Shown: one piece after another, positions 1-33,163 of the stretch
Numbering within the stretch: the stretch's first letter is position 1
Layout: each line of letters begins with the position of its first letter
From: Candidatus Levyibacteriota bacterium
GTDB taxonomy: Bacteria > Patescibacteriota > Microgenomatia > Levybacterales > GWA1-39-11
Direction of reading: 5' to 3'
NCBI GenBank assembly: GCA_018062815.1
Contig: JAGORM010000001.1
Location: 16,301 to 80,300 of the forward strand
Length of the DNA: 64,000 nucleotides
Notes under the pieces: model-generated
The model's input: the letters and a program-made list of their open reading frames with translations, nothing else
Told to the model about the DNA's origin: nothing
Database searches by the model: none
Made by a program: the position numbers and the translations under genes

Positions 1-1641
1 AGTTTCCACCTCTGAGGAATTTTGTTTCAGTAGGATTTGCATGGAAGAATTAGATAAAATTGCTTTACCGTAGTCTGAGGATAAAAAGTCTTCTATGTCC
101 TGGGTAAGAGTGGTAACACCCAAATAGTATTTTCTTGCGCGCTTAGCAATTCCCTGTAAAAATGCCGCGGAGTCAGGGTTTTTCATAAGGTACCATGCCT
201 CATCAACTATTAAAATACGTTTTTTAAGTTTAGTCCTAACCCTATTCCAGATAAAATCCAAAATCACCTGCATTGCTACAGGTCGAAGAGACTCCTCCAG
301 TTGTTTTATGGAAAAAACAGTAAGCTGATTTTTGACATCATAGTTAGTTTGTGAATTTAATAATCCGGCAAACCCTCCTTTAATGTATTTTTCCAGTCTA
401 AAAGCTAAATCCTTTGCGTCTGCTTCTTCCATGTTCAGAAGAGTTTTGTATAGATCCTCAAGAATGGGAGGCTCATTTCCAAAAGTTGAAGGGTCAGGAA
501 TTATACCTTTTTGCTTATAGCATAAAACCAGTGCTCGGTCTAAAATTGCCTCCTGGGTTGGGGAAAATTCGCCAAGCATAATCTTAAGAAGTGAGTGAAG
601 GGCTAAAAATTTTATTCCAAGCTGCGCTTCGGTTCTGTCGTCTGAAAGAAGGGCGAACGGATTAATTTTTACTTCAGAGTCCTTTGAGAAGGAGATATAT
701 TCTCCGTCAAGGCCGTGACAGAGGGCTTTATACTCATCCTCAGGGTCTATGATAAGAATTTCTGTGTCAAACATCATTTGGCGCAATACTTCAAGCTTTA
801 CTAAAAACGATTTTCCAGAGCCTGATTTTCCAAAAACAACCGAATTTGCATTTTCAAAGGAGAAGCGGTCCACAATGATAAGTGAGTTATTAAGCGTGTT
901 TACACCATAAAAAATGCCGTTTGGCTGAGAGATTTCGTAGGATGTGAACGGAAACGTTGAGGCAACGGATGTGGTGTCCATATTCCGTGTGATGAACAAT
1001 TTGTCCTCACCTAAAGGAAGTGTTGTTTTAAAACCATCTTCCATTTGAAGCGTTGCTGGTTTTATAACAAGTAAATTTGACGCAAGTAGGGAGGTCAGTT
1101 CATTAGTTTTTTTATCAAGCTCATCAACAGTTTTTGCGGAAAGCGTTACATAAAGCCCGAATTGAAAAAACCGCTCAAGTCCGCGCGCCAACTCCTCACG
1201 TAGAGCAATCGCGTCTTCAAGAGATGCTCTGACCTTGGGGTCAGGTTCTATGCCGTTTTTCATGTCTGATTCAATTGTTGCCTCCATTTCTCCGATTTTG
1301 CGTTTCAAATTGGAGAGAATATCCTTACTTTCGACAGGATATATAAACATAGATACATTCATGGTTTCCTTATAGTCTATGAGTATGGAGAGCCAGTTTG
1401 GGGAAACTTCACGCGGATAATCAATTACAATAAACGTTCTATAGAATGCGTCTCCTACCCTGATGTACTTAAAATCTACTTCAACTGATGAAGGAGCAAG
1501 AAGGTCTATCAGAGACACAGATCCGCTCTTTAATCTTTCAACTCCTCGTGCGACTTGTGGTTGTGTGCTTTCTGGTGTTCCATTAGCCGTTTGTGCAGTT
1601 GTATTTTTTTCTGTTTGTTTTTTCTTTCCAATTCCTAACAT
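1..1641 (-). CDS. virB4: VirB4/TrbE/CagE-family type IV secretion ATPase; C-terminus runs off the window start
   Basis: Manual minus-strand translation from ATG at 1641: MLGIGKKKQTEK... Walker A (FGKSGSGKSF) and Walker B (LIVDEAWYLM). The N-terminal region has the VirB4/TraC N-domain pattern. No stop codon before coordinate 1. Confidence 0.8.
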   Translation of the reverse strand, partial: MLGIGKKKQTEKNTTAQTANGTPESTQPQVARGVERLKSGSVSLIDLLAPSSVEVDFKYIRVGDAFYRTFIVIDYPREVSPNWLSILIDYKETMNVSMFIYPVESKDILSNLKRKIGEMEATIESDMKNGIEPDPKVRASLEDAIALREELARGLERFFQFGLYVTLSAKTVDELDKKTNELTSLLASNLLVIKPATLQMEDGFKTTLPLGEDKLFITRNMDTTSVASTFPFTSYEISQPNGIFYGVNTLNNSLIIVDRFSFENANSVVFGKSGSGKSFLVKLEVLRQMMFDTEILIIDPEDEYKALCHGLDGEYISFSKDSEVKINPFALLSDDRTEAQLGIKFLALHSLLKIMLGEFSPTQEAILDRALVLCYKQKGIIPDPSTFGNEPPILEDLYKTLLNMEEADAKDLAFRLEKYIKGGFAGLLNSQTNYDVKNQLTVFSIKQLEESLRPVAMQVILDFIWNRVRTKLKKRILIVDEAWYLMKNPDSAAFLQGIAKRARKYYLGVTTLTQDIEDFLSSDYGKAILSNSSMQILLKQNSSEVET

Positions 1642-6848: not shown

Positions 6849-7175
6849 TTATTTTCCTAACTCTTGCAGTACCTGCGCACCCAGAATAAAGCCTATAATT
6901 CTTACAATAGTAAATGACAGAAGGATTATGATAAGCCCTACAATTGAATACGTGATAGTACGCCTAGCGCGGTCAATTTTAGTTTTGTCTCCTTGAGACG
7001 TAATCCACAAAACACCTGCATACAGCATAAAGATGAGAGAGGCAATAATTCCTATTACAACTATCATTCCTAATCCAAAACTAATAATATCAGACGGAGC
7101 ACTTGCTCCTGACGGGATGTTTTCAGGAGTTTGTACCTCTCCATACCCTGGTAGTGTTAAAGATAAGTATTTCAT
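6849..7175 (-). CDS. VirB2/TrbC-like T4SS pilin paralog
   Basis: MLYAGVLWITSQGDKTKIDRARRTITYSIVGLIIILLSFTIV signature. Confidence 0.65.
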   Translation of the reverse strand: MKYLSLTLPGYGEVQTPENIPSGASAPSDIISFGLGMIVVIGIIASLIFMLYAGVLWITSQGDKTKIDRARRTITYSIVGLIIILLSFTIVRIIGFILGAQVLQELGK

Positions 7176-21982: not shown

Positions 21983-22687
21983 ATGTTTAGCTTCGTTTTA
22001 GACTTTATATTTCCAAAGAAATGTGTAGGCTGTAAAAAGTATGGATCTTATTTGTGTGACGTATGCTTTTCTTATATAGAGATTTTTGAGCAATATGTTT
22101 GTCCTATGTGCCTAAAGTATTCTATTACCGGAGAAACGCATCCTGGTTGCATTACGCCTCTTTCTTTAGACGGGTTAATATGTGGGGTGGTATACAAAGG
22201 GGTTGTTAAAAAAATGATTTTCAGACTTAAATATAGTCCTTATGTTTTGGATATAGGTACTACTATGGGTAGAATTGCAGTTGATGCTGTAAGCCAAAAT
22301 GAGTTATTTCATAGGGTACTCTCCTCCCATCCTATAGTTGTAGAAGTTCCTCTCTCTGCTAACAAGTTAAAAAAAAGAGGTTATAATCAGGCAGAAATTT
22401 TAGGTCAATTTTTGGCAGATGAATTGGATATTTATTTTTTGAAAGAAATACTGGAAAGAATTAAACCAACAAATCCTCAATTTAAGTTGGATAAAAAAGA
22501 ACGACAAAGAAATGTATTGGGCGCATTTGAAGTAAATAAAAAACACAGGAATATGATAAAAAATAAAGACATACTATTAGTGGATGATGTTTCCACCTCC
22601 TGTGCCACTTTAAAAGAATGCGCAAAAATTCTCAAAAGAAACGGCGCGAAAAAGGTATATGGAGTAACCTTTGCCCGTGAGATTTAA
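21983..22687 (+). CDS. comFC: ComF/GntX-family protein (double zinc ribbon + phosphoribosyltransferase fold)
   Basis: N-terminus CVGCKKYGSYLCDVCFSY...CPMC and the PRTase motif ILLVDDVSTSCATL. Confidence 0.75.
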   Translation: MFSFVLDFIFPKKCVGCKKYGSYLCDVCFSYIEIFEQYVCPMCLKYSITGETHPGCITPLSLDGLICGVVYKGVVKKMIFRLKYSPYVLDIGTTMGRIAVDAVSQNELFHRVLSSHPIVVEVPLSANKLKKRGYNQAEILGQFLADELDIYFLKEILERIKPTNPQFKLDKKERQRNVLGAFEVNKKHRNMIKNKDILLVDDVSTSCATLKECAKILKRNGAKKVYGVTFAREI

Positions 22688-22919: not shown

Positions 22920-23366
22920 ATGAGAATATTTAACAAACAAGCGCCAGTACAATTTAGTATTGAGGAAAAATATGAGGCAGGGATTGTTCTTCAGGGACAA
23001 GAAGTAAAGGCTATAAAATTAGGGCATGCTGATCTTACCGGATCATATGTTAAGCTGTTAGGGTCTGAAGCATATCTTATAAATTCCCGTATATTCCCCT
23101 ATGAGTATGCACGTGCGCAAAACTATCAAGAAACAAGAACTAGAAAATTGTTACTTCATAGAAAAGAGTTATTAAAGCTAAAGAGTAAACTTGCAGAAGG
23201 CAAGTACACACTGATAGGAATTTCGCTTTATGATACTAAAACAGGACTTATAAAGATAGAAATTGGACTCGCACGGGGTAAAAAGAAGTATGGTAGGGAA
23301 AAAGAAGTACGTAGGCGTGAGTTGGATTTACAATCCGAACGCGAATTTAAAGAACAAAATTATTAA
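22920..23366 (+). CDS. smpB: SsrA-binding protein SmpB
   Basis: GIVLQGQEVKAIKLGHADLTGSYVK...LLLHRKELLKL is the conserved SmpB core. Confidence 0.9.
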   Translation: MRIFNKQAPVQFSIEEKYEAGIVLQGQEVKAIKLGHADLTGSYVKLLGSEAYLINSRIFPYEYARAQNYQETRTRKLLLHRKELLKLKSKLAEGKYTLIGISLYDTKTGLIKIEIGLARGKKKYGREKEVRRRELDLQSEREFKEQNY

Positions 23367-23539: not shown

Positions 23540-23940
23540 TGGGGATGCAATGCATCGACAGAAATTGCTCTTTTACAACTGCAAGCCGGCGATGGTTCAC
23601 AGCCGTAAAATAGGACCAAAAATACACGGTAAGTTTAATCTTACCCAGGGTCTCAAACGCGTTTTCGCGGATAGAGACATGTTTAAAGTAGGGCAACCTG
23701 CTTTTAACTTCGCTTAATAGCGCCTTGCTTACGCCCTTTCTTTTCTTAACGGATAAGCGTAGGTAAAAACCTTGTTAAGATAGGGTTCAAGAGTTGATCG
23801 ACCTTGAATTAGAAAAATTAGATCTTGGAATTGTTTTCCCTGTTAATTGGGTCAGAACAAAACGACAATTTAAAGATTAACTACGCTTGTAGATGTTGTA
23901 ATAAGTCATTTTTGGACGGGAGATCAAACTCCCCATCTCC
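23540..23940 (+). ncRNA. ssrA: tmRNA (ssrA), about 400 nt, predicted tag peptide ADRDMFKVGQPAFNFA followed by a double stop
   Basis: 5' GGGGATGCAATGCATCGACAG compares with E. coli GGGGCUGAUUCUGGAUUCGACGG. The 3' end has a T-arm GGGAG-ATCAAA-CTCCC and an acceptor strand CATCTCC complementary to the 5' GGGGATG (with G-U pairs), then a discriminator A. A resume-like GCG codon at 23666 opens a frame GCG GAT AGA ... TTC GCT TAA TAG. Lies immediately downstream of smpB. Confidence 0.65.
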
Positions 23941-23989
23941 ACACCATTTAACTTAGTTGTTACATCTTTATAAATGTGACACGCTTTTA

Positions 23990-28590: not shown

Positions 28591-28635
28591 AACAATTTTT
28601 ATCTATTCTTACAACCAGGGGGAAGAAATTGTGGG

Positions 28636-28707
28636 TGGGCGCGGCAGGATTTGAACCTGCGACCAATTGTGTATAAGACAACCGCTCTACCACTGAGCTA
28701 CACGCCC
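28636..28707 (-). tRNA. tRNA with anticodon UAU (tRNA-Ile reading AUA)
   Basis: Reverse complement GGGCGTG-TA-GCTC-AGTGGT-AGAGC-G-GTTGT-CTTATAC-ACAAT-TGGTC-GCAGG-TTCAAAT-CCTGC-CGCGCCC-A forms a cloverleaf. The 7-nt anticodon loop is CU-UAU-AC. No encoded CCA. Confidence 0.75.
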
Positions 28708-28762
28708 AAAAAGGAAACTGTGGTAAATTATAGCACGAGAAAGGAAAATATTCGATTCGTAA

Positions 28763-31195
28763 TTATATAAGGCCGCCGTTGCCGCCACCTAGCTTATCTC
28801 CTCCGGGGTTACCAAATGGATCTTCACCTCCTGGACCTAAATCACCAAATACTTCAAATAATTTAGAACGTTTTGCTATTTCAGCCTCAACTAATTCTTT
28901 TGGCTTTCCGTATTTTAGCCTGGATAGCTCCTTAACTAATTCAGCGACCCTAGGGTTTGCCATTTTTCGTTCAGCTTCAATATCTCGAGTAAGATCCATT
29001 GAGAATGGTGGAGCGGGCTCATTTTTGATAACAGTTTTAACATATGCGTGACGTGCCTCAATATTTATCAGATCAGCTTCGGTAAAGGTTGGCTGAAATT
29101 CATGTTGCAGATAATTTGCATCAGATACGCCTACTCGGAATGATACAATAGTTCCGACGTTTCCAAAAATAGCATTTTTAATTTCCTCCTCAATTTGCCC
29201 TATGAATTGGTTTGCAACTATTAGGTTTAATCTATATTTTCTTGCCTCAGAGAGTATTTGCGCAAAATCAGGCGTTGCAAAATTTTGAAACTCATCTACA
29301 TAAAGGAAAAAATCGCGCCTTTGTTCCTGCGGAATATCTTGTCTACTCATAGCAGCAACGAGTATTTTGGGAACCAGTATAAGTCCAAGAAAGTTTGAGT
29401 TTTCTTCACCGATTTTCCCTTTGGCAAGCGAGATAAGAAGAATTTTACCCTCATCCATTGAGCGTCTAAAATTAAAAGATGAGTCAGATTGACCGATCAT
29501 ATTTCTCATCATGGTGTTTGTAACAAATCTTCCAAATTTTGAAGTAATATAATCTAATACTTCAGATTTATGAAAGTCAGAAGTTTGTGCTATCTGATCA
29601 GTCCAGTAGCGTCTGATAATAGGATCTTTTACTTTAGGGAGAAGTTCCTGGACAAAATTTTGATCAGTTAAGACGCGCATAACCTCCACAAATGTATTCC
29701 CCGGCTCGGACATAACGGTAAGCATAGCATTTCTTACAGCGTGCTCAAATCTAGGGCCTATGATACCTGTTTGATGTGGATCAAAGAGCTTATACATGAG
29801 CCCTATAATGGATGTTACCACCAAATGTTTTTGTTCTTCTGTTTGAGCCTCAAGCATATTTAGTCCCATTGGCCGTTCTGTGTCTGATGGATCAAAAAGT
29901 ATTACGTCTTCTGCGCGTTCAGGCGGAATTAGTGGCAAGATTAAATCAATTGTGTCATGAGGGTCAATAAAGCAGACTCCGTGCCCTGCCTTAATATCTT
30001 GCAGTATCATATCTTTTAGAAATTCAGATTTTCCTACACCTGTTTTCCCGACTATATACATATGTCTTCGTCTGTCGTCTTCCCCTATATATATGGGTTT
30101 TGAATTTCCCCTGTATTCACTTTTTCCAATATACAGTCCGGTTGTAGGAATACTTGCAGGTGCAGGGGCACTGCGGGCAGCTAGCCAGTGAATATGTGGG
30201 CTTTCAACAGACTTATTCGGAAAGTGGAAGATAGTCGCAAGTTCATCAACGGAAAGGACTGAACCTTTTTTGAGAAGAGGAAGTGTTCTGTAAATAAAAT
30301 CCACCATAAACATTCCCTTGAAATACTTCATTTTTTCCTTGGAGAAAGAATTGTATGAGGAGAATTGAGTAAATGAGGTAACCATATTTTCCAAATGCGC
30401 ATTTGCTGCTTCTTTTGAAGATGATGAGACAACAAGTCTTATATAAGTGTTGAAAGCAGGTTTTGACAGTTTTCCCTCTATTGCCTCCAATTCCTTTTGG
30501 TCAACTGAATATTTTGCTGTTTCAGGATTTGCCTCTCTTTTTTTAATGCCTGTTATATGTGCACGCCCCTGTTTTTTCCATTTCCCGTCAGTAGGAGTAA
30601 TAAGTATTTGGATAGCAGCAGATTCGCCTTCCTGCATTTTCCCAAGAGTTGAAACCATTGTTGACATTGGGTCAACAGGAAGTTGCTGAAAAGATTTTAT
30701 TGGAATATAAGGGGAAGATTTTAAAACAAGTCCTGCAAATGCTACCTTACTTTCATCTGAGAAAATATCATATTCTTCAGCAGGTGAAATACTCGCGTCG
30801 GGATATGCACCGTGGATTTGTTTTTCAACCATATCTTCCAACTTCTTAGGTATTGATACGTAAAACCTGATATCTCCTGTTTTAGCAACTATTTCAAATG
30901 CTATATAATCAGGTACTTTTGAAAATCCCAGTAATCCCTTTGCTCCTTTTATTCCAGAAAACGCCGAAAACATTTGTTCTGCAGCATCTATCTTTATTTC
31001 ATTCTCTCGGGGTAGTTGTACTTCAAGCAAGACCATATCAAGAGCCTTTTTCTGTCTTTCGCGGTTTTTCTTCCAAAAAAGATATGCGACATATATTCCT
31101 AAGACTGCAAATACAATCAAGCTTGTGAGGAGGATTCCTATAGCAAGAACAAAAAGAAGCGTTATGATGTTGTTTACAATGTCTACCCCTGTCAT
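28763..31195 (-). CDS. Membrane-anchored FtsK/HerA/TrwB-superfamily ATPase; type IV coupling protein (VirD4/TraG)-like
   Basis: N-terminal TM. Walker A IVGKTGVGKSEF, Walker B FFLYVDEFQNF, then SEARKYRLNLIVANQFIGQI (the arginine-finger/Q-rich motif of T4CP/HerA-type ATPases). Gly-rich C-terminal tail. Confidence 0.5.
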   Translation of the reverse strand: MTGVDIVNNIITLLFVLAIGILLTSLIVFAVLGIYVAYLFWKKNRERQKKALDMVLLEVQLPRENEIKIDAAEQMFSAFSGIKGAKGLLGFSKVPDYIAFEIVAKTGDIRFYVSIPKKLEDMVEKQIHGAYPDASISPAEEYDIFSDESKVAFAGLVLKSSPYIPIKSFQQLPVDPMSTMVSTLGKMQEGESAAIQILITPTDGKWKKQGRAHITGIKKREANPETAKYSVDQKELEAIEGKLSKPAFNTYIRLVVSSSSKEAANAHLENMVTSFTQFSSYNSFSKEKMKYFKGMFMVDFIYRTLPLLKKGSVLSVDELATIFHFPNKSVESPHIHWLAARSAPAPASIPTTGLYIGKSEYRGNSKPIYIGEDDRRRHMYIVGKTGVGKSEFLKDMILQDIKAGHGVCFIDPHDTIDLILPLIPPERAEDVILFDPSDTERPMGLNMLEAQTEEQKHLVVTSIIGLMYKLFDPHQTGIIGPRFEHAVRNAMLTVMSEPGNTFVEVMRVLTDQNFVQELLPKVKDPIIRRYWTDQIAQTSDFHKSEVLDYITSKFGRFVTNTMMRNMIGQSDSSFNFRRSMDEGKILLISLAKGKIGEENSNFLGLILVPKILVAAMSRQDIPQEQRRDFFLYVDEFQNFATPDFAQILSEARKYRLNLIVANQFIGQIEEEIKNAIFGNVGTIVSFRVGVSDANYLQHEFQPTFTEADLINIEARHAYVKTVIKNEPAPPFSMDLTRDIEAERKMANPRVAELVKELSRLKYGKPKELVEAEIAKRSKLFEVFGDLGPGGEDPFGNPGGDKLGGGNGGLI

Positions 31196-31729: not shown

Positions 31730-31821
31730 GTTTTCATGATATCACCAATAGCTTCTTTTGGCAATTTCACAAACCCAACAAAAGAGTAACAGGATGAAAG
31801 GGGAAAAAAGGCTAGTATGTG

Positions 31822-31913
31822 CGGAGGAGACAGGATTTGAACCTGCGCGAGCCTGTTTAAGGGGCTCAGGGGGTTAGCAACCCCCCGCAATGGACCAACT
31901 ATGCGACTCCTCC
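31822..31913 (-). tRNA. tRNA-Ser (anticodon GCU), class II with long variable arm and G73
   Basis: Reverse complement GGAGGAG-TC-GCA-...-TGC-G-GGGGG-TTGCTAA-CCCCC-(variable arm GAGCC...GGCTC)-GCAGG-TTCAAAT-CCTGT-CTCCTCC-G. Confidence 0.75.
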
Positions 31914-31979
31914 GAGTCTTGCAATTATACCATGGGAAAGTAGAAATATGGGTTGTTCCGTGATATAGTTTGAATACAA

Positions 31980-32064
31980 GGAGAGGTCGCATAGTGGCCT
32001 AGTGCAGCGGTTTACTAAACCGCCGTATCGCAAGATACCGAGAGTTCGAATCTCTCCCTCTCCG
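31980..32064 (+). tRNA. Class II Ser-type tRNA (G73, long variable arm) with the unusual anticodon ACU
   Basis: GGAGAGG-TC-GCA-TAGTGGCCTAG-TGC-A-GCGGT-TTACTAA-ACCGC-C-GTATC-GCAA-GATAC-C-GAGAG-TTCGAAT-CTCTC-CCTCTCC-G. The anticodon stem has 5 Watson-Crick pairs; loop positions 34-36 are A-C-U. Followed by a T-run. Confidence 0.6.
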
Positions 32065-32106
32065 CATTTTTTTTAATTTCCTCGTTTTTTGGTATAATCC
32101 CCTTTC

Positions 32107-32526
32107 ATGAGCATTATTGAACTCGCAACGCCTTTGTACGAAAACAAAAACCAAAGAGCAGTCTCTGTGGAAATGAATAGAAGATATAAAAAGGGAGAAG
32201 AGTTAATACTGGATACAGCAAGAGACGCACGGTGGATTGTTTCAGAAAGTGGGTTTTCAGACATTCTTATGGTACAAGATTCGCTTCGTGCATTTGTGGA
32301 TGTAGGAATAGGAAAAAGAGATATGCAGATTGCGGAGTATACAAGATCAGCATTTTTAAACATTCCTAATCCGACAATGCAAAAAGCTATTCTTAGAGGT
32401 GCATGCCGCGAGGCAATTTTGTTTTGGGATGAAAAAATGAGCGAATCTGATGCATTGTATGAGGTGGCACAGTATGGTCCTGAAAGAATTGAATTTTTTA
32501 ATTTCCAGCTTGGTAATCTAAAATAA
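32107..32526 (+). CDS. Hypothetical protein (139 aa)
   Basis: ORF track; no motif. Confidence 0.35.
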   Translation: MSIIELATPLYENKNQRAVSVEMNRRYKKGEELILDTARDARWIVSESGFSDILMVQDSLRAFVDVGIGKRDMQIAEYTRSAFLNIPNPTMQKAILRGACREAILFWDEKMSESDALYEVAQYGPERIEFFNFQLGNLK

Positions 32527-32623
32527 AATCTTTAGCAGGAGTCAGTTCTTTGTCTTACAGTATTCTCACAATTTTCATATAGACTTTTTGTAGAGCATCG
32601 CAGTATACTAATTATAATAAGGT

Positions 32624-32935
32624 ATGTTACCTCTACTTTTAATAATACTTATAGCCTTGTGGTTTTTAGGGTATATTCACATTTCAGGTTATATCCCCAA
32701 TTTCCCTTTGTTTTCAGTTAATAATCACAGTGTATCTTTGTGGGATATCCTAATTCTCTTGGCAATAGCATGGGCAATAGGAATTCTTCCAAGTCCACTC
32801 CGTCAAATAGCTGCAGCACTTCTTGTTATTTGGTTGCTTGCAACATTCGGAATAATCGCTATAAGTGGTCTTGCACAGGTAATAGTTCTTGCCATTATTG
32901 CGGGGGTAATCCTTGCACTTCTAGATATTGTATAG
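32624..32935 (+). CDS. Small polytopic membrane protein (103 aa)
   Basis: ORF track; three hydrophobic helices. Confidence 0.35.
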   Translation: MLPLLLIILIALWFLGYIHISGYIPNFPLFSVNNHSVSLWDILILLAIAWAIGILPSPLRQIAAALLVIWLLATFGIIAISGLAQVIVLAIIAGVILALLDIV

Positions 32936-33022
32936 CTTCATATTAAGTTTAAAATACGTTATAATACATAAACTTGGAGAGCATGAGTTGAAATTTATAG
33001 GGTTTGTTTGACTCTCCATACT

Positions 33023-33109
33023 GGAGAGGTCGCATAGTGGTTTAGTGCGAAGGTCTTGAAAACCTTTATGGGGGAAACCTCATCGGGGGTTCGAATCCCC
33101 CCCTCTCCG
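33023..33109 (+). tRNA. tRNA-Ser (anticodon UGA), class II, G73
   Basis: GGAGAGG-TC-GCA-TAGTGGTTTAG-TGC-G-AAGGT-CTTGAAA-ACCTT-(variable arm ATGGGG-GAAA-CCTCAT)-GGGGG-TTCGAAT-CCCCC-CCTCTCC-G. Confidence 0.8.
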
Positions 33110-33163
33110 CCCTTTTATTAGCCTCCTCTATATAGAATTTATTAGTATCGCCATCTCAGAAAT

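Follow-up and report, generated by a model that had tools for sequence, protein, structure and literature searches.

The window analyzed here, a 64,000-nucleotide stretch of contig JAGORM010000001.1 from a Candidatus Levyibacteriota bacterium, contains a tRNA-Ser gene with the anticodon ACU, which places an adenosine at the wobble position (A34). The gene is a member of a family of tRNA-Ser(ACU) genes that is intact, covarying and present in at least about 119 species of the candidate phyla radiation (CPR, or Patescibacteria). We consider it very likely that the gene is a functional tRNA gene under selection. It is probable that it represents a genuine, selectively maintained serine isoacceptor typical of CPR bacteria that acts by the mechanism proposed below. 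The sequences moderately favor this mechanism in full, in which a serylated tRNA with an unmodified A34 would read AGU specifically.

ARAGORN detects four tRNAs in the window, three of which form a serine cluster with the following elements:

31821-31913, minus strand: tRNA-Ser(GCU), the canonical AGY decoder (ARAGORN; Rfam RF00005, 53.2 bits)
31941-31969, plus strand: promoter-like site for the ACU gene, TAGAAA, 17-nt spacer and TG-extended TATAGT (consensus scan 9/12, TG present)
31980-32065, plus strand: tRNA-Ser(ACU), class II (ARAGORN; Rfam RF00005, 52.2 bits)
32014-32016, plus strand: ACT anticodon, read directly from the sequence, with A34 at 32014
32067-32074, plus strand: run of eight T directly 3' of the ACU gene (sequence reading)
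33022-33112, plus strand: tRNA-Ser(UGA), a UCN decoder (ARAGORN; Rfam RF00005, 60.3 bits)

The GCU and ACU genes are arranged head-to-head with 66 nt between them. The ACU gene aligns to RF00005 over its full length with zero non-canonical pairs flagged, and its score lies well above the gathering score of 29 bits, as would not be expected if the covariance model had marked it as a pseudogene. All stems are Watson-Crick paired: the acceptor stem (GGAGAGG/CCTCTCC), the D-stem (GCA/TGC, with G18-G19 in the D-loop), the anticodon stem (GCGGT/ACCGC, with the loop TTACTAA), the 5-bp variable-arm helix (GTATC-GCAA-GATAC) and the T-arm (GAGAG-TTCGAAT-CTCTC, T-stem GAGAG/CTCTC). The discriminator base G73 is found at 32064, and CCA is not encoded. 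The serine identity set of E. coli consists of G73 together with G1-C72, G2-C71, A3-U70 and C11-G24, and the gene holds all of these. The original prediction, made from the sequence alone, had described three class II serine tRNAs with GCU (minus strand), ACU and UGA (plus strand) anticodons, and a UU-ACU-AA loop on a fully paired stem; ARAGORN, Rfam and the direct reading agree with it on each of these points.

The distance from the end of the promoter-like site (consensus match only) to the mature 5' end of the ACU gene is 10 nt. The T-run downstream is a likely transcription stop, for which the acceptor and T-arm would serve as the hairpin; a simple terminator scan of the window made no call at this position.

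The ACU and UGA genes had also been noted to share a near-identical 5' part, which was taken as a sign of duplication. The similarity is real for the 5' strand of the acceptor stem and for the D-arm, while a recent duplication is not supported: Microgenomates-type serine tRNAs have this 5' half in common throughout the lineage. In the alignment the remainder of the two genes differs across the anticodon stem, variable arm and T-stem, and the pairs are compensated throughout, so any duplication must be old.

To place the gene in a wider context, one genome per species (185,579 species) was scanned for class II tRNAs with the loop YT-ACT-AA, yielding at least 120 loci, nearly all of those listed belonging to CPR. 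All 120 listed loci hold an ARAGORN tRNA-Ser(act). Together with that of the window, the matches listed comprise 122 ACU genes with 118 unique sequences. Record titles name a CPR lineage for 86 of the matches listed, including Paceibacteria, Nomurabacteria, Magasanikbacteria, Falkowbacteria, Levybacteria, Woesebacteria, Gottesmanbacteria, Collierbacteria and Roizmanbacteria, as well as Microgenomates, Minisyncoccia, Parcubacteria, "Patescibacteria group" and Saccharibacteria. A further 13 listed loci are unnamed "bacterium" records, and one, a Schleiferilactobacillus scaffold of 255 bp, has the same sequence as a viral contig. The other 19 listed loci bear implausible labels (Gammaproteobacteria, Pseudomonadales, Acidiferrales). 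Their tRNAs fall into CPR clusters and their proteins match those of the window where tested, and the taxonomic labels of these metagenome-assembled genomes (MAGs), for example "uncultured Gammaproteobacteria", look wrong. The apparently mislabeled MAGs, TPA and other, are L004, L006, L011, L016, L021, L028, L034, L039, L044, L051, L068, L073, L082, L085, L086, L094, L098, L100 and L118; they have CPR-type content, some on contigs of about 1 Mb that carry tRNA-Arg(GCG).

When the 126 distinct ACU sequences are aligned, their consensus is the canonical cloverleaf of class II tRNAs. Standard pairs occupy 99.3% of the alignment cells and 19 of the 25 pairs show compensatory double changes. The covariation score is 0.624, compared to 0.178 for shuffled alignments (0 of 500 reach the observed value) and at most 0.10 for slid partners. 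The variable region spans 14–20 nt across the family, with a helix that is 97% paired and covaries in 5 of 5 pairs. G73 is present in 125 of the 126 sequences and G51-C63 in 123, neither being imposed by the search pattern; G49-C65 is found in 113, and C11-G24 in 66, among them the group of the window. Positions 1–4 were fixed by the pattern in most of the sequences, and U36, found in 126 of 126, is likewise pattern-fixed. The consensus structure has a 7-bp acceptor stem and a 5-bp T-stem in standard geometry, unlike tRNA-Sec or an allo-tRNA (8/4, 9/3 or 9/4 geometry, or a UCA anticodon).

The ACU genes group with one another. With the anticodon masked, the nearest neighbor of an ACU gene is the ACU gene of another genome in 119 of 122 cases (matches listed and window), and the GCU and UGA genes likewise group with their own kind. 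The masked identity between an ACU gene and the co-located GCU gene averages about 0.61 across the family. The two genes are physically linked: a tRNA-Ser(GCU) gene lies in the same locus (within 8 kb) for 71 of 121 pattern-found ACU genes, at a median distance of 256 nt, and of the 72 pairs, that of the window included, 31 show the head-to-head arrangement (median gap 95 nt). Among the 263 tRNAs of the listed CPR loci, ACU is the sole anticodon with A34. These loci contain nine tRNA-Arg(GCG), four Arg(CCG) and one Arg(CCU) genes (e.g. L019 5089-5163, L039 5280-5355, L051 1535-1611), and no Arg(ACG). The Arg(GCG) gene often belongs to a small conserved cluster, where it is intermixed with Ser(CGA) and Arg(CCG) genes.

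We used an adjacent protein gene as an anchor that is blind to the anticodon. ComF was tried for this purpose, with the tRNA cluster falling just outside the 10-kb flank in most loci, and the VirD4-like protein was used instead. The neighboring features of the window are:

28763-31195, minus strand: 810-aa VirD4/TraG-like protein (DUF8128; Pfam), a conserved chromosomal neighbor
32107-32526, plus strand: 139-aa orphan open reading frame (ORF) between the ACU and UGA genes, no Pfam or NCBIfam match
32624-32935, plus strand: 103-aa hydrophobic orphan ORF between the ACU and UGA genes, no Pfam match
32937-32965, plus strand: promoter-like site upstream of the UGA gene, TTCATA, 17-nt spacer and TATAAT (consensus scan 10/12)

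Two relatives from independent assemblies, L004 and L249, have VirD4-like proteins 85.6% and 87% identical to that of the window. Both carry the same tRNA body with A34, and the variable-arm stem of L004 differs from that of the window and is fully paired through compensation. At the VirD4-like gene, the relative at 87% holds GCU, UGA and ACU genes. Other Levybacteria, such as L018, share the common variable arm GTATCGCAAGATAC and show compensated changes in the anticodon and T stems; the window gene is orthologous to the ACU genes of these genomes. The ACU gene is thus widespread, and old enough for strong divergence. In the relative at 68% identity, the sampled flank of the VirD4-like gene has none of the serine tRNAs.

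The serine tRNA region next to the VirD4-like gene is prone to rearrangement. With the latter read on the plus strand, the order is UGA(-), ACU(-), GCU(+) in the window (31821-33112), GCU(-), UGA(+), ACU(+) in L249 (2514-3320), UGA(-), GCU(-) in L251 (3316-3584) and UGA(+), GCU(+) in L378 (4360-4611). The version of the window includes the two orphan ORFs; the exact protein of the 139-aa ORF occurs on just two other contigs, and the 103-aa ORF is present on L241 too.

Metagenomes were also searched with the arm CGGTTTNNNAAACCGNCG, leaving the anticodon as NNN, which gave at least 120 matches. The arm was rejected as a marker specific to the ACU family, as 78 of the 120 matches listed are ordinary Ser(GCU) genes from other phyla. 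All four matches with at least 90% masked identity to the CPR family carry ACT. One match, L152 (Ga0315271_10000819), has the same 5' half and was considered as a G34 counterexample; it was rejected, as the contig has 70% GC and is not CPR. Its Ser(GCU) gene equals the window ACU gene over the first 34 bases and the 3' strand of the anticodon stem, except for G34, and directly adjoins a tRNA-Arg(GCG) gene (tRNAs at 6937-7113). The same contig encodes a TadA-like protein (16-696, minus strand; 106.9 bits, below the NCBIfam cut-off of 150). A TadA-like gene alongside Arg(GCG) is odd, as is the resemblance of the tRNA body to CPR. Two metagenome contigs with the CGGT/ACCG arm carry a natural tRNA-Ser(AGA), with A34 in the UCN box (L134 1628-1714, L171 49-136).

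The state of A34 determines which codons the tRNA could read. TadA recognizes the anticodon-loop motif UACG. The loop of the ACU gene is UACU, and inosine at position 34 (I34) is associated with a synonymous set of three or four codons, whereas AGN is split between Ser and Arg. AGA is the most used Arg codon in the window (17.3 per 1000), so reading of A by I34 would come at a cost, placing Ser at Arg sites. CPR genomes appear to lack tRNA-Arg(ACG) and to use Arg(GCG) instead (Shulgina and Eddy, PMC8629427). The original prediction had suggested searching the genome for tadA. With E. coli TadA and five diverse TadA-like ORFs as queries, tblastn gave no match to a TadA or other CDA-fold protein, either in the 64 kb of this genome that were searched or in pooled CPR DNA totaling 1.12 Mb; the latter amounts to about one genome-equivalent and is weak evidence. 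The gene tables of Southlakia epibionticum, a complete Saccharibacteria genome that may or may not carry an ACU gene, list a dCTP deaminase as the sole "deaminase" (PMC10633639 supplements). Since CPR apparently lack Arg(ACG) and no TadA was found in this DNA and annotation, A34 probably stays an unmodified adenosine.

Decoding by an ACU anticodon has been measured in E. coli. An orthogonal tRNA with this anticodon reassigned AGU at 9.4%; at AGG the figure was 0.36%, and AGC and AGA gave no detectable signal. The tRNA was classed with the A34 tRNAs that discriminate at least 10:1 for U over C (PMC11066159). Overexpression of a Ser-tRNA(ACU) gave better growth parameters of E. coli in at least two media (preprint 10.64898/2026.05.15.725136).

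We infer expression, serylation, an unmodified A34 and AGU-specific decoding, which would be connected as follows. The gene would be transcribed from its own putative promoter, and SerRS would charge the tRNA by way of the long variable arm, G73, G1-C72, G2-C71, A3-U70 and C11-G24. EF-Tu would then bring the charged tRNA to the ribosome. A34, most likely left as adenosine, would read AGU by a full Watson-Crick A34:U3 pair, alongside and partly duplicating the neighboring tRNA-Ser(GCU), which reads AGC and, by wobble, AGU. The arginine codons AGA and AGG would barely be touched, as the published measurements suggest. Together, the decoding data from E. coli, the unbroken set of serine identity elements and T-stem pairs favorable to EF-Tu binding make a dedicated AGU reader the most likely role.

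The same loop pattern was run on IMG/VR and matched at least 120 viral loci (L258-L377). All 120 listed viral loci contain a class II ARAGORN Ser(act), with 74 unique sequences. Among the matches listed, these genes are mostly 70–85% identical to the CPR family, half have C32, and they lie in tRNA arrays of up to 27 genes. Ser(gct) is present too in just 6 of the 120 listed loci. Other A34 tRNAs in the listed loci are Ser-AGA (four), Leu-AAG (three), Gly-ACC (two) and Thr-AGU (one). When two ACU tRNAs were compared by BLAST with the genomes of 50,697 deposited phages, only weak matches of about 75% identity appeared. According to published surveys, phages have no ANN tRNAs. The independent recurrence in phages indicates that ACU is a workable anticodon. 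One viral record, L308 (IMGVR_UViG_3300000970_000154), has an ACU tRNA 99% identical to a member of the CPR family; it is either a misfiled CPR fragment or a CPR prophage or phage with a host-type gene.

Two alternatives, both named in the original prediction, concern the adenosine itself. If TadA or an unrecognized deaminase converted A34 to I34, the ICU anticodon would read AGU and AGC efficiently and AGA somewhat. The loop U33-A34-C35-N36-A37-A38 differs from that of the Arg(ACG) substrate of TadA just at positions 32 and 36, E. coli deaminates some non-cognate ANN tRNAs (Phe-AAA, and 3 of 15 orthogonal tRNAs tested), and the search for TadA in this particular genome covered 64 kb only. The absence of Arg(ACG) from CPR, the missing TadA or CDA-fold homologs in the 1.12 Mb of CPR DNA and in the Saccharibacteria annotation, the UACU loop and the leading position of AGA among the Arg codons speak against inosine. 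I34 in a 2:2 split box is known from no organism (PMC8007984), and even in TadA-positive E. coli the orthogonal ACU tRNA strongly disfavors AGC, which its authors read as an unmodified A34. We therefore regard an inosine decoder as quite improbable. A recent G34A mutation, a decaying duplicate, or a sequencing or assembly error at position 34 is barely credible. One base separates ACU from GCU, and relatives at 70–75% protein identity have no ACU gene at the same site; yet the body of the gene is unlike that of the local GCU gene, with most stem positions different, its Rfam score is on par with that of the latter, A34 is identical in L004 and L249, orthologs with the GTATCGCAAGATAC arm exist in other Levybacteria, and the covariation of the 126-sequence family is far above the controls. 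The third possibility raised there, a genuine unusual decoder, is the one that gains support, on a scale that had been missed: the gene is a feature of the CPR lineage as a whole, and of phages also.

Other alternatives retain a functional tRNA and change its purpose. As an escape or back-up isoacceptor, it would decode AGY while A34 resists the anticodon-loop nucleases or toxins that hit Ser(GCU), under pressure from the hosts on phages and epibiotic CPR alike. Phage tRNAs are reported to evade host tRNA-targeting defenses. Consistent with such a role, ACU turns up again, independently, in the tRNA arrays of phages, where most of the genes are unrelated to the CPR family and few have a Ser(gct) partner, codon bias explains its presence in neither CPR nor phages, and the gene is redundant with GCU and patchy, as a conditionally useful gene might be. 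However, we know of no nuclease specific for tRNA-Ser(GCU) and none was identified, so the idea rests on analogy, and why the AGY box alone is affected remains unaccounted for; we judge it unlikely. The redundancy with GCU would also suit a non-translational serine donor or regulatory tRNA that is kept off the ribosome, for example for cell-wall or lipid aminoacylation. Non-canonical functions were proposed for "missing" tRNAs (PMC8007984), and LPG_synthase_C, an aminoacyl-lipid synthase domain, occurs in related Levybacteria loci. Such a tRNA is very unlikely here, as the elongator features G18-G19 and the TTCGAAT T-loop are intact, the pairs that bind EF-Tu strongly (G49-C65 and G51-C63) are kept in most of the family, and the loop with U33 and U36-A37-A38 is that of a reader of ANN codons. 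Cell-wall tRNAs, in contrast, weaken the EF-Tu-binding T-stem pairs, G18-G19 or the T-loop consensus.

Several observations weigh against the reading that we prefer, a conserved and dedicated reader of AGU. The conservation of A34 within the scan matches is partly circular, as the search pattern fixed the ACU loop, and the checks that are blind to the anticodon are small (four metagenome tRNAs and two close relatives). The limited span of the TadA search in this genome belongs here as well. At the syntenic site, relatives at 74, 75, 72 and 70% protein identity (L251/L253, L255, L256, L378) have UGA and GCU genes only in the 4–5 kb upstream flank, which makes the ACU gene dispensable or mobile and not universal at this site; L246 likewise shows UGA and GCU, its locus ending just past GCU with the far side outside the view. 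Regarding a single ancient origin, the identity between ACU genes of different classes (0.65–0.76) barely differs from that between ACU and UGA genes within a class (0.64–0.70), so that it is indistinguishable from repeated recruitment or concerted evolution. Finally, no benefit is evident from codon usage. AGU makes up 0.56 of the AGY codons in the window, 0.63–0.66 in ACU-carrying CPR loci, 0.57 in Levybacteria without ACU at the site and an unremarkable 0.62 in the phage loci. Over all sets (0.54–0.66), this share is about equal to or below the U-ending share of other NNY boxes, and relatives that have ACU at the site show no difference in it from those that lack ACU there. Codon usage was thus rejected as an explanation, there being no AGU excess in the window, the CPR loci or the phage loci.

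Several further features of the window were recorded. It has a GC content of about 37% and encodes tmRNA, SmpB, ComF, a B12-dependent ribonucleotide reductase, SpoIID and the VirD4-like DUF8128 protein. Homologs of the latter at 68–90% identity are named Levybacteria, and the named homologs of ComF are from Candidatus Levybacteria/Levyibacteriota and "Patescibacteria group", which marks the organism as a CPR bacterium of Levybacteria type. The tmRNA (23541-23944, plus strand) scores 100.7 bits in Rfam without an ARAGORN call and is located downstream of smpB and comF (22920-23366 and 21983-22687, both plus strand), in a comF-smpB-tmRNA block that is syntenic across Levybacteria. In 32 of the 120 listed CPR loci, the distance between ComF and the ACU gene is no more than 8 kb, and in Southlakia epibionticum a ComFC gene is directly upstream of a tRNA-Ser.

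In the leader of the UGA gene, GGAGAG (32976-32981) is followed after 30 nt by CTCTCC (33012-33017), and the mature 5' end begins with GGAGAG (33023-33028). Either GGAGAG copy, the one upstream or the one that forms the 5' acceptor strand, could pair with the CTCTCC segment, so that the precursor might adopt an alternative structure. A tRNA-Ile(UAU) gene (28632-28708, minus strand; Rfam 76.6 bits) adjoins the SpoIID and VirD4-like genes and is found at the same position in every Levybacteria relative sampled (L242, L244, L246, L249, L251, L255, L256, L257, L378). UAU is listed by reviews as the sole UNN anticodon missing in prokaryotes (PMC8007984). The presence of the gene suggests that AUA is read without lysidine or TilS in this lineage.

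The near-absence of wobble adenosine is a long-standing puzzle, which is sharpest in the two-codon boxes. Ser(ACU) was counted among eight "universally missing" tRNA genes in a survey whose sampled phyla exclude CPR (PMC8007984). More recently, seven split-box ANN tRNAs were described as universally absent, and split-box ANN genes treated as sporadic accidents (preprint 10.64898/2026.05.15.725136). The open-access full-text literature yielded no account of a natural Ser(ACU) in bacteria, CPR or phages, and an earlier mention elsewhere is possible; the genes sit in public assemblies and have surely been seen by annotators. A CPR-wide Ser(ACU) family contradicts the published generalization. A34 tRNAs as such are already known; this one differs in being located in a split box, probably unmodified and retained in a lineage. 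The CPR family and the independent phage versions show that the ACU anticodon is viable in nature.

It is possible, and we offer it tentatively, that Ser(ACU) is the first known case of a split-box ANN tRNA that persists throughout a bacterial lineage and also recurs in phages, and that CPR can afford it since they gave up wobble inosine (no Arg(ACG), no TadA). An encoded A34 would then stay A and read only AGU, and the ban on split-box A34 elsewhere would largely be a side effect of TadA or of the risk of superwobbling by A34. If this is true, CPR constitute a natural test system for that ban. The family allows one to ask how A34 acts on the ribosome, whether the loss of TadA gives permission for it, and what miscoding of Arg as Ser would cost, and cultivation and genetic manipulation are now feasible for some CPR. 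Automated annotation should not mark ACU genes as pseudogenes, and models of codons and tRNAs in CPR should take in a dedicated AGU reader.

Comparison with known systems places the ACU tRNA close to the canonical bacterial Ser(GCU). The two share the class II fold, G73, G1-C72/G2-C71/A3-U70 and the loop U32-U33-N34-C35-U36-A37-A38, and the CGGT/ACCG arm of the ACU family is the ordinary Ser(GCU) arm in many non-CPR bacteria. The ACU tRNA differs in having A34 in place of G34 and in existing beside a GCU gene, and the CPR Ser(GCU) has an anticodon stem of its own (cctc/gagg).

With TadA as its partner, tRNA-Arg(ACG) is the one near-universal bacterial A34 tRNA. The original prediction had called A34 otherwise restricted to it, which reflects the textbook view and is inexact, Leu-AAG and Thr-AGU being known exceptions. 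Arg(ACG) and Ser(ACU) have in common a gene-encoded A34 and the loop U-A-C-N-A-A. While the former serves a four-codon box and is deaminated to inosine, the latter belongs to a 2:2 split box in which inosine would miscode. The Thr(AGU) of Mollicutes is a natural and apparently unmodified A34 tRNA of bacteria with reduced genomes (PMC11066159). It acts in a four-fold box and reads ACU, ACC and ACG in Mycoplasma extracts, whereas the ACU anticodon is U-specific as measured in E. coli. The Leu(AAG) of Lactobacillales is another non-ACG ANN tRNA kept lineage-wide in AT-rich bacteria; it belongs to a four-fold box, replaces GAG and is deaminated by TadA, while the CPR ACU tRNA coexists with GCU and probably stays A.

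The engineered Ser-tRNA(ACU) and orthogonal ACU tRNAs of E. coli have the same anticodon and favor AGU over AGC by at least 10:1. They are synthetic and operate in a TadA-positive host, and the authors of the preprint and of the review deem a natural counterpart absent. The Ser(ACU) of phage arrays shares the class II Ser-type structure and the anticodon with the CPR family and differs from it in sequence (mostly 70–85% identity), in having C32 in half of the genes and in usually lacking a GCU partner.

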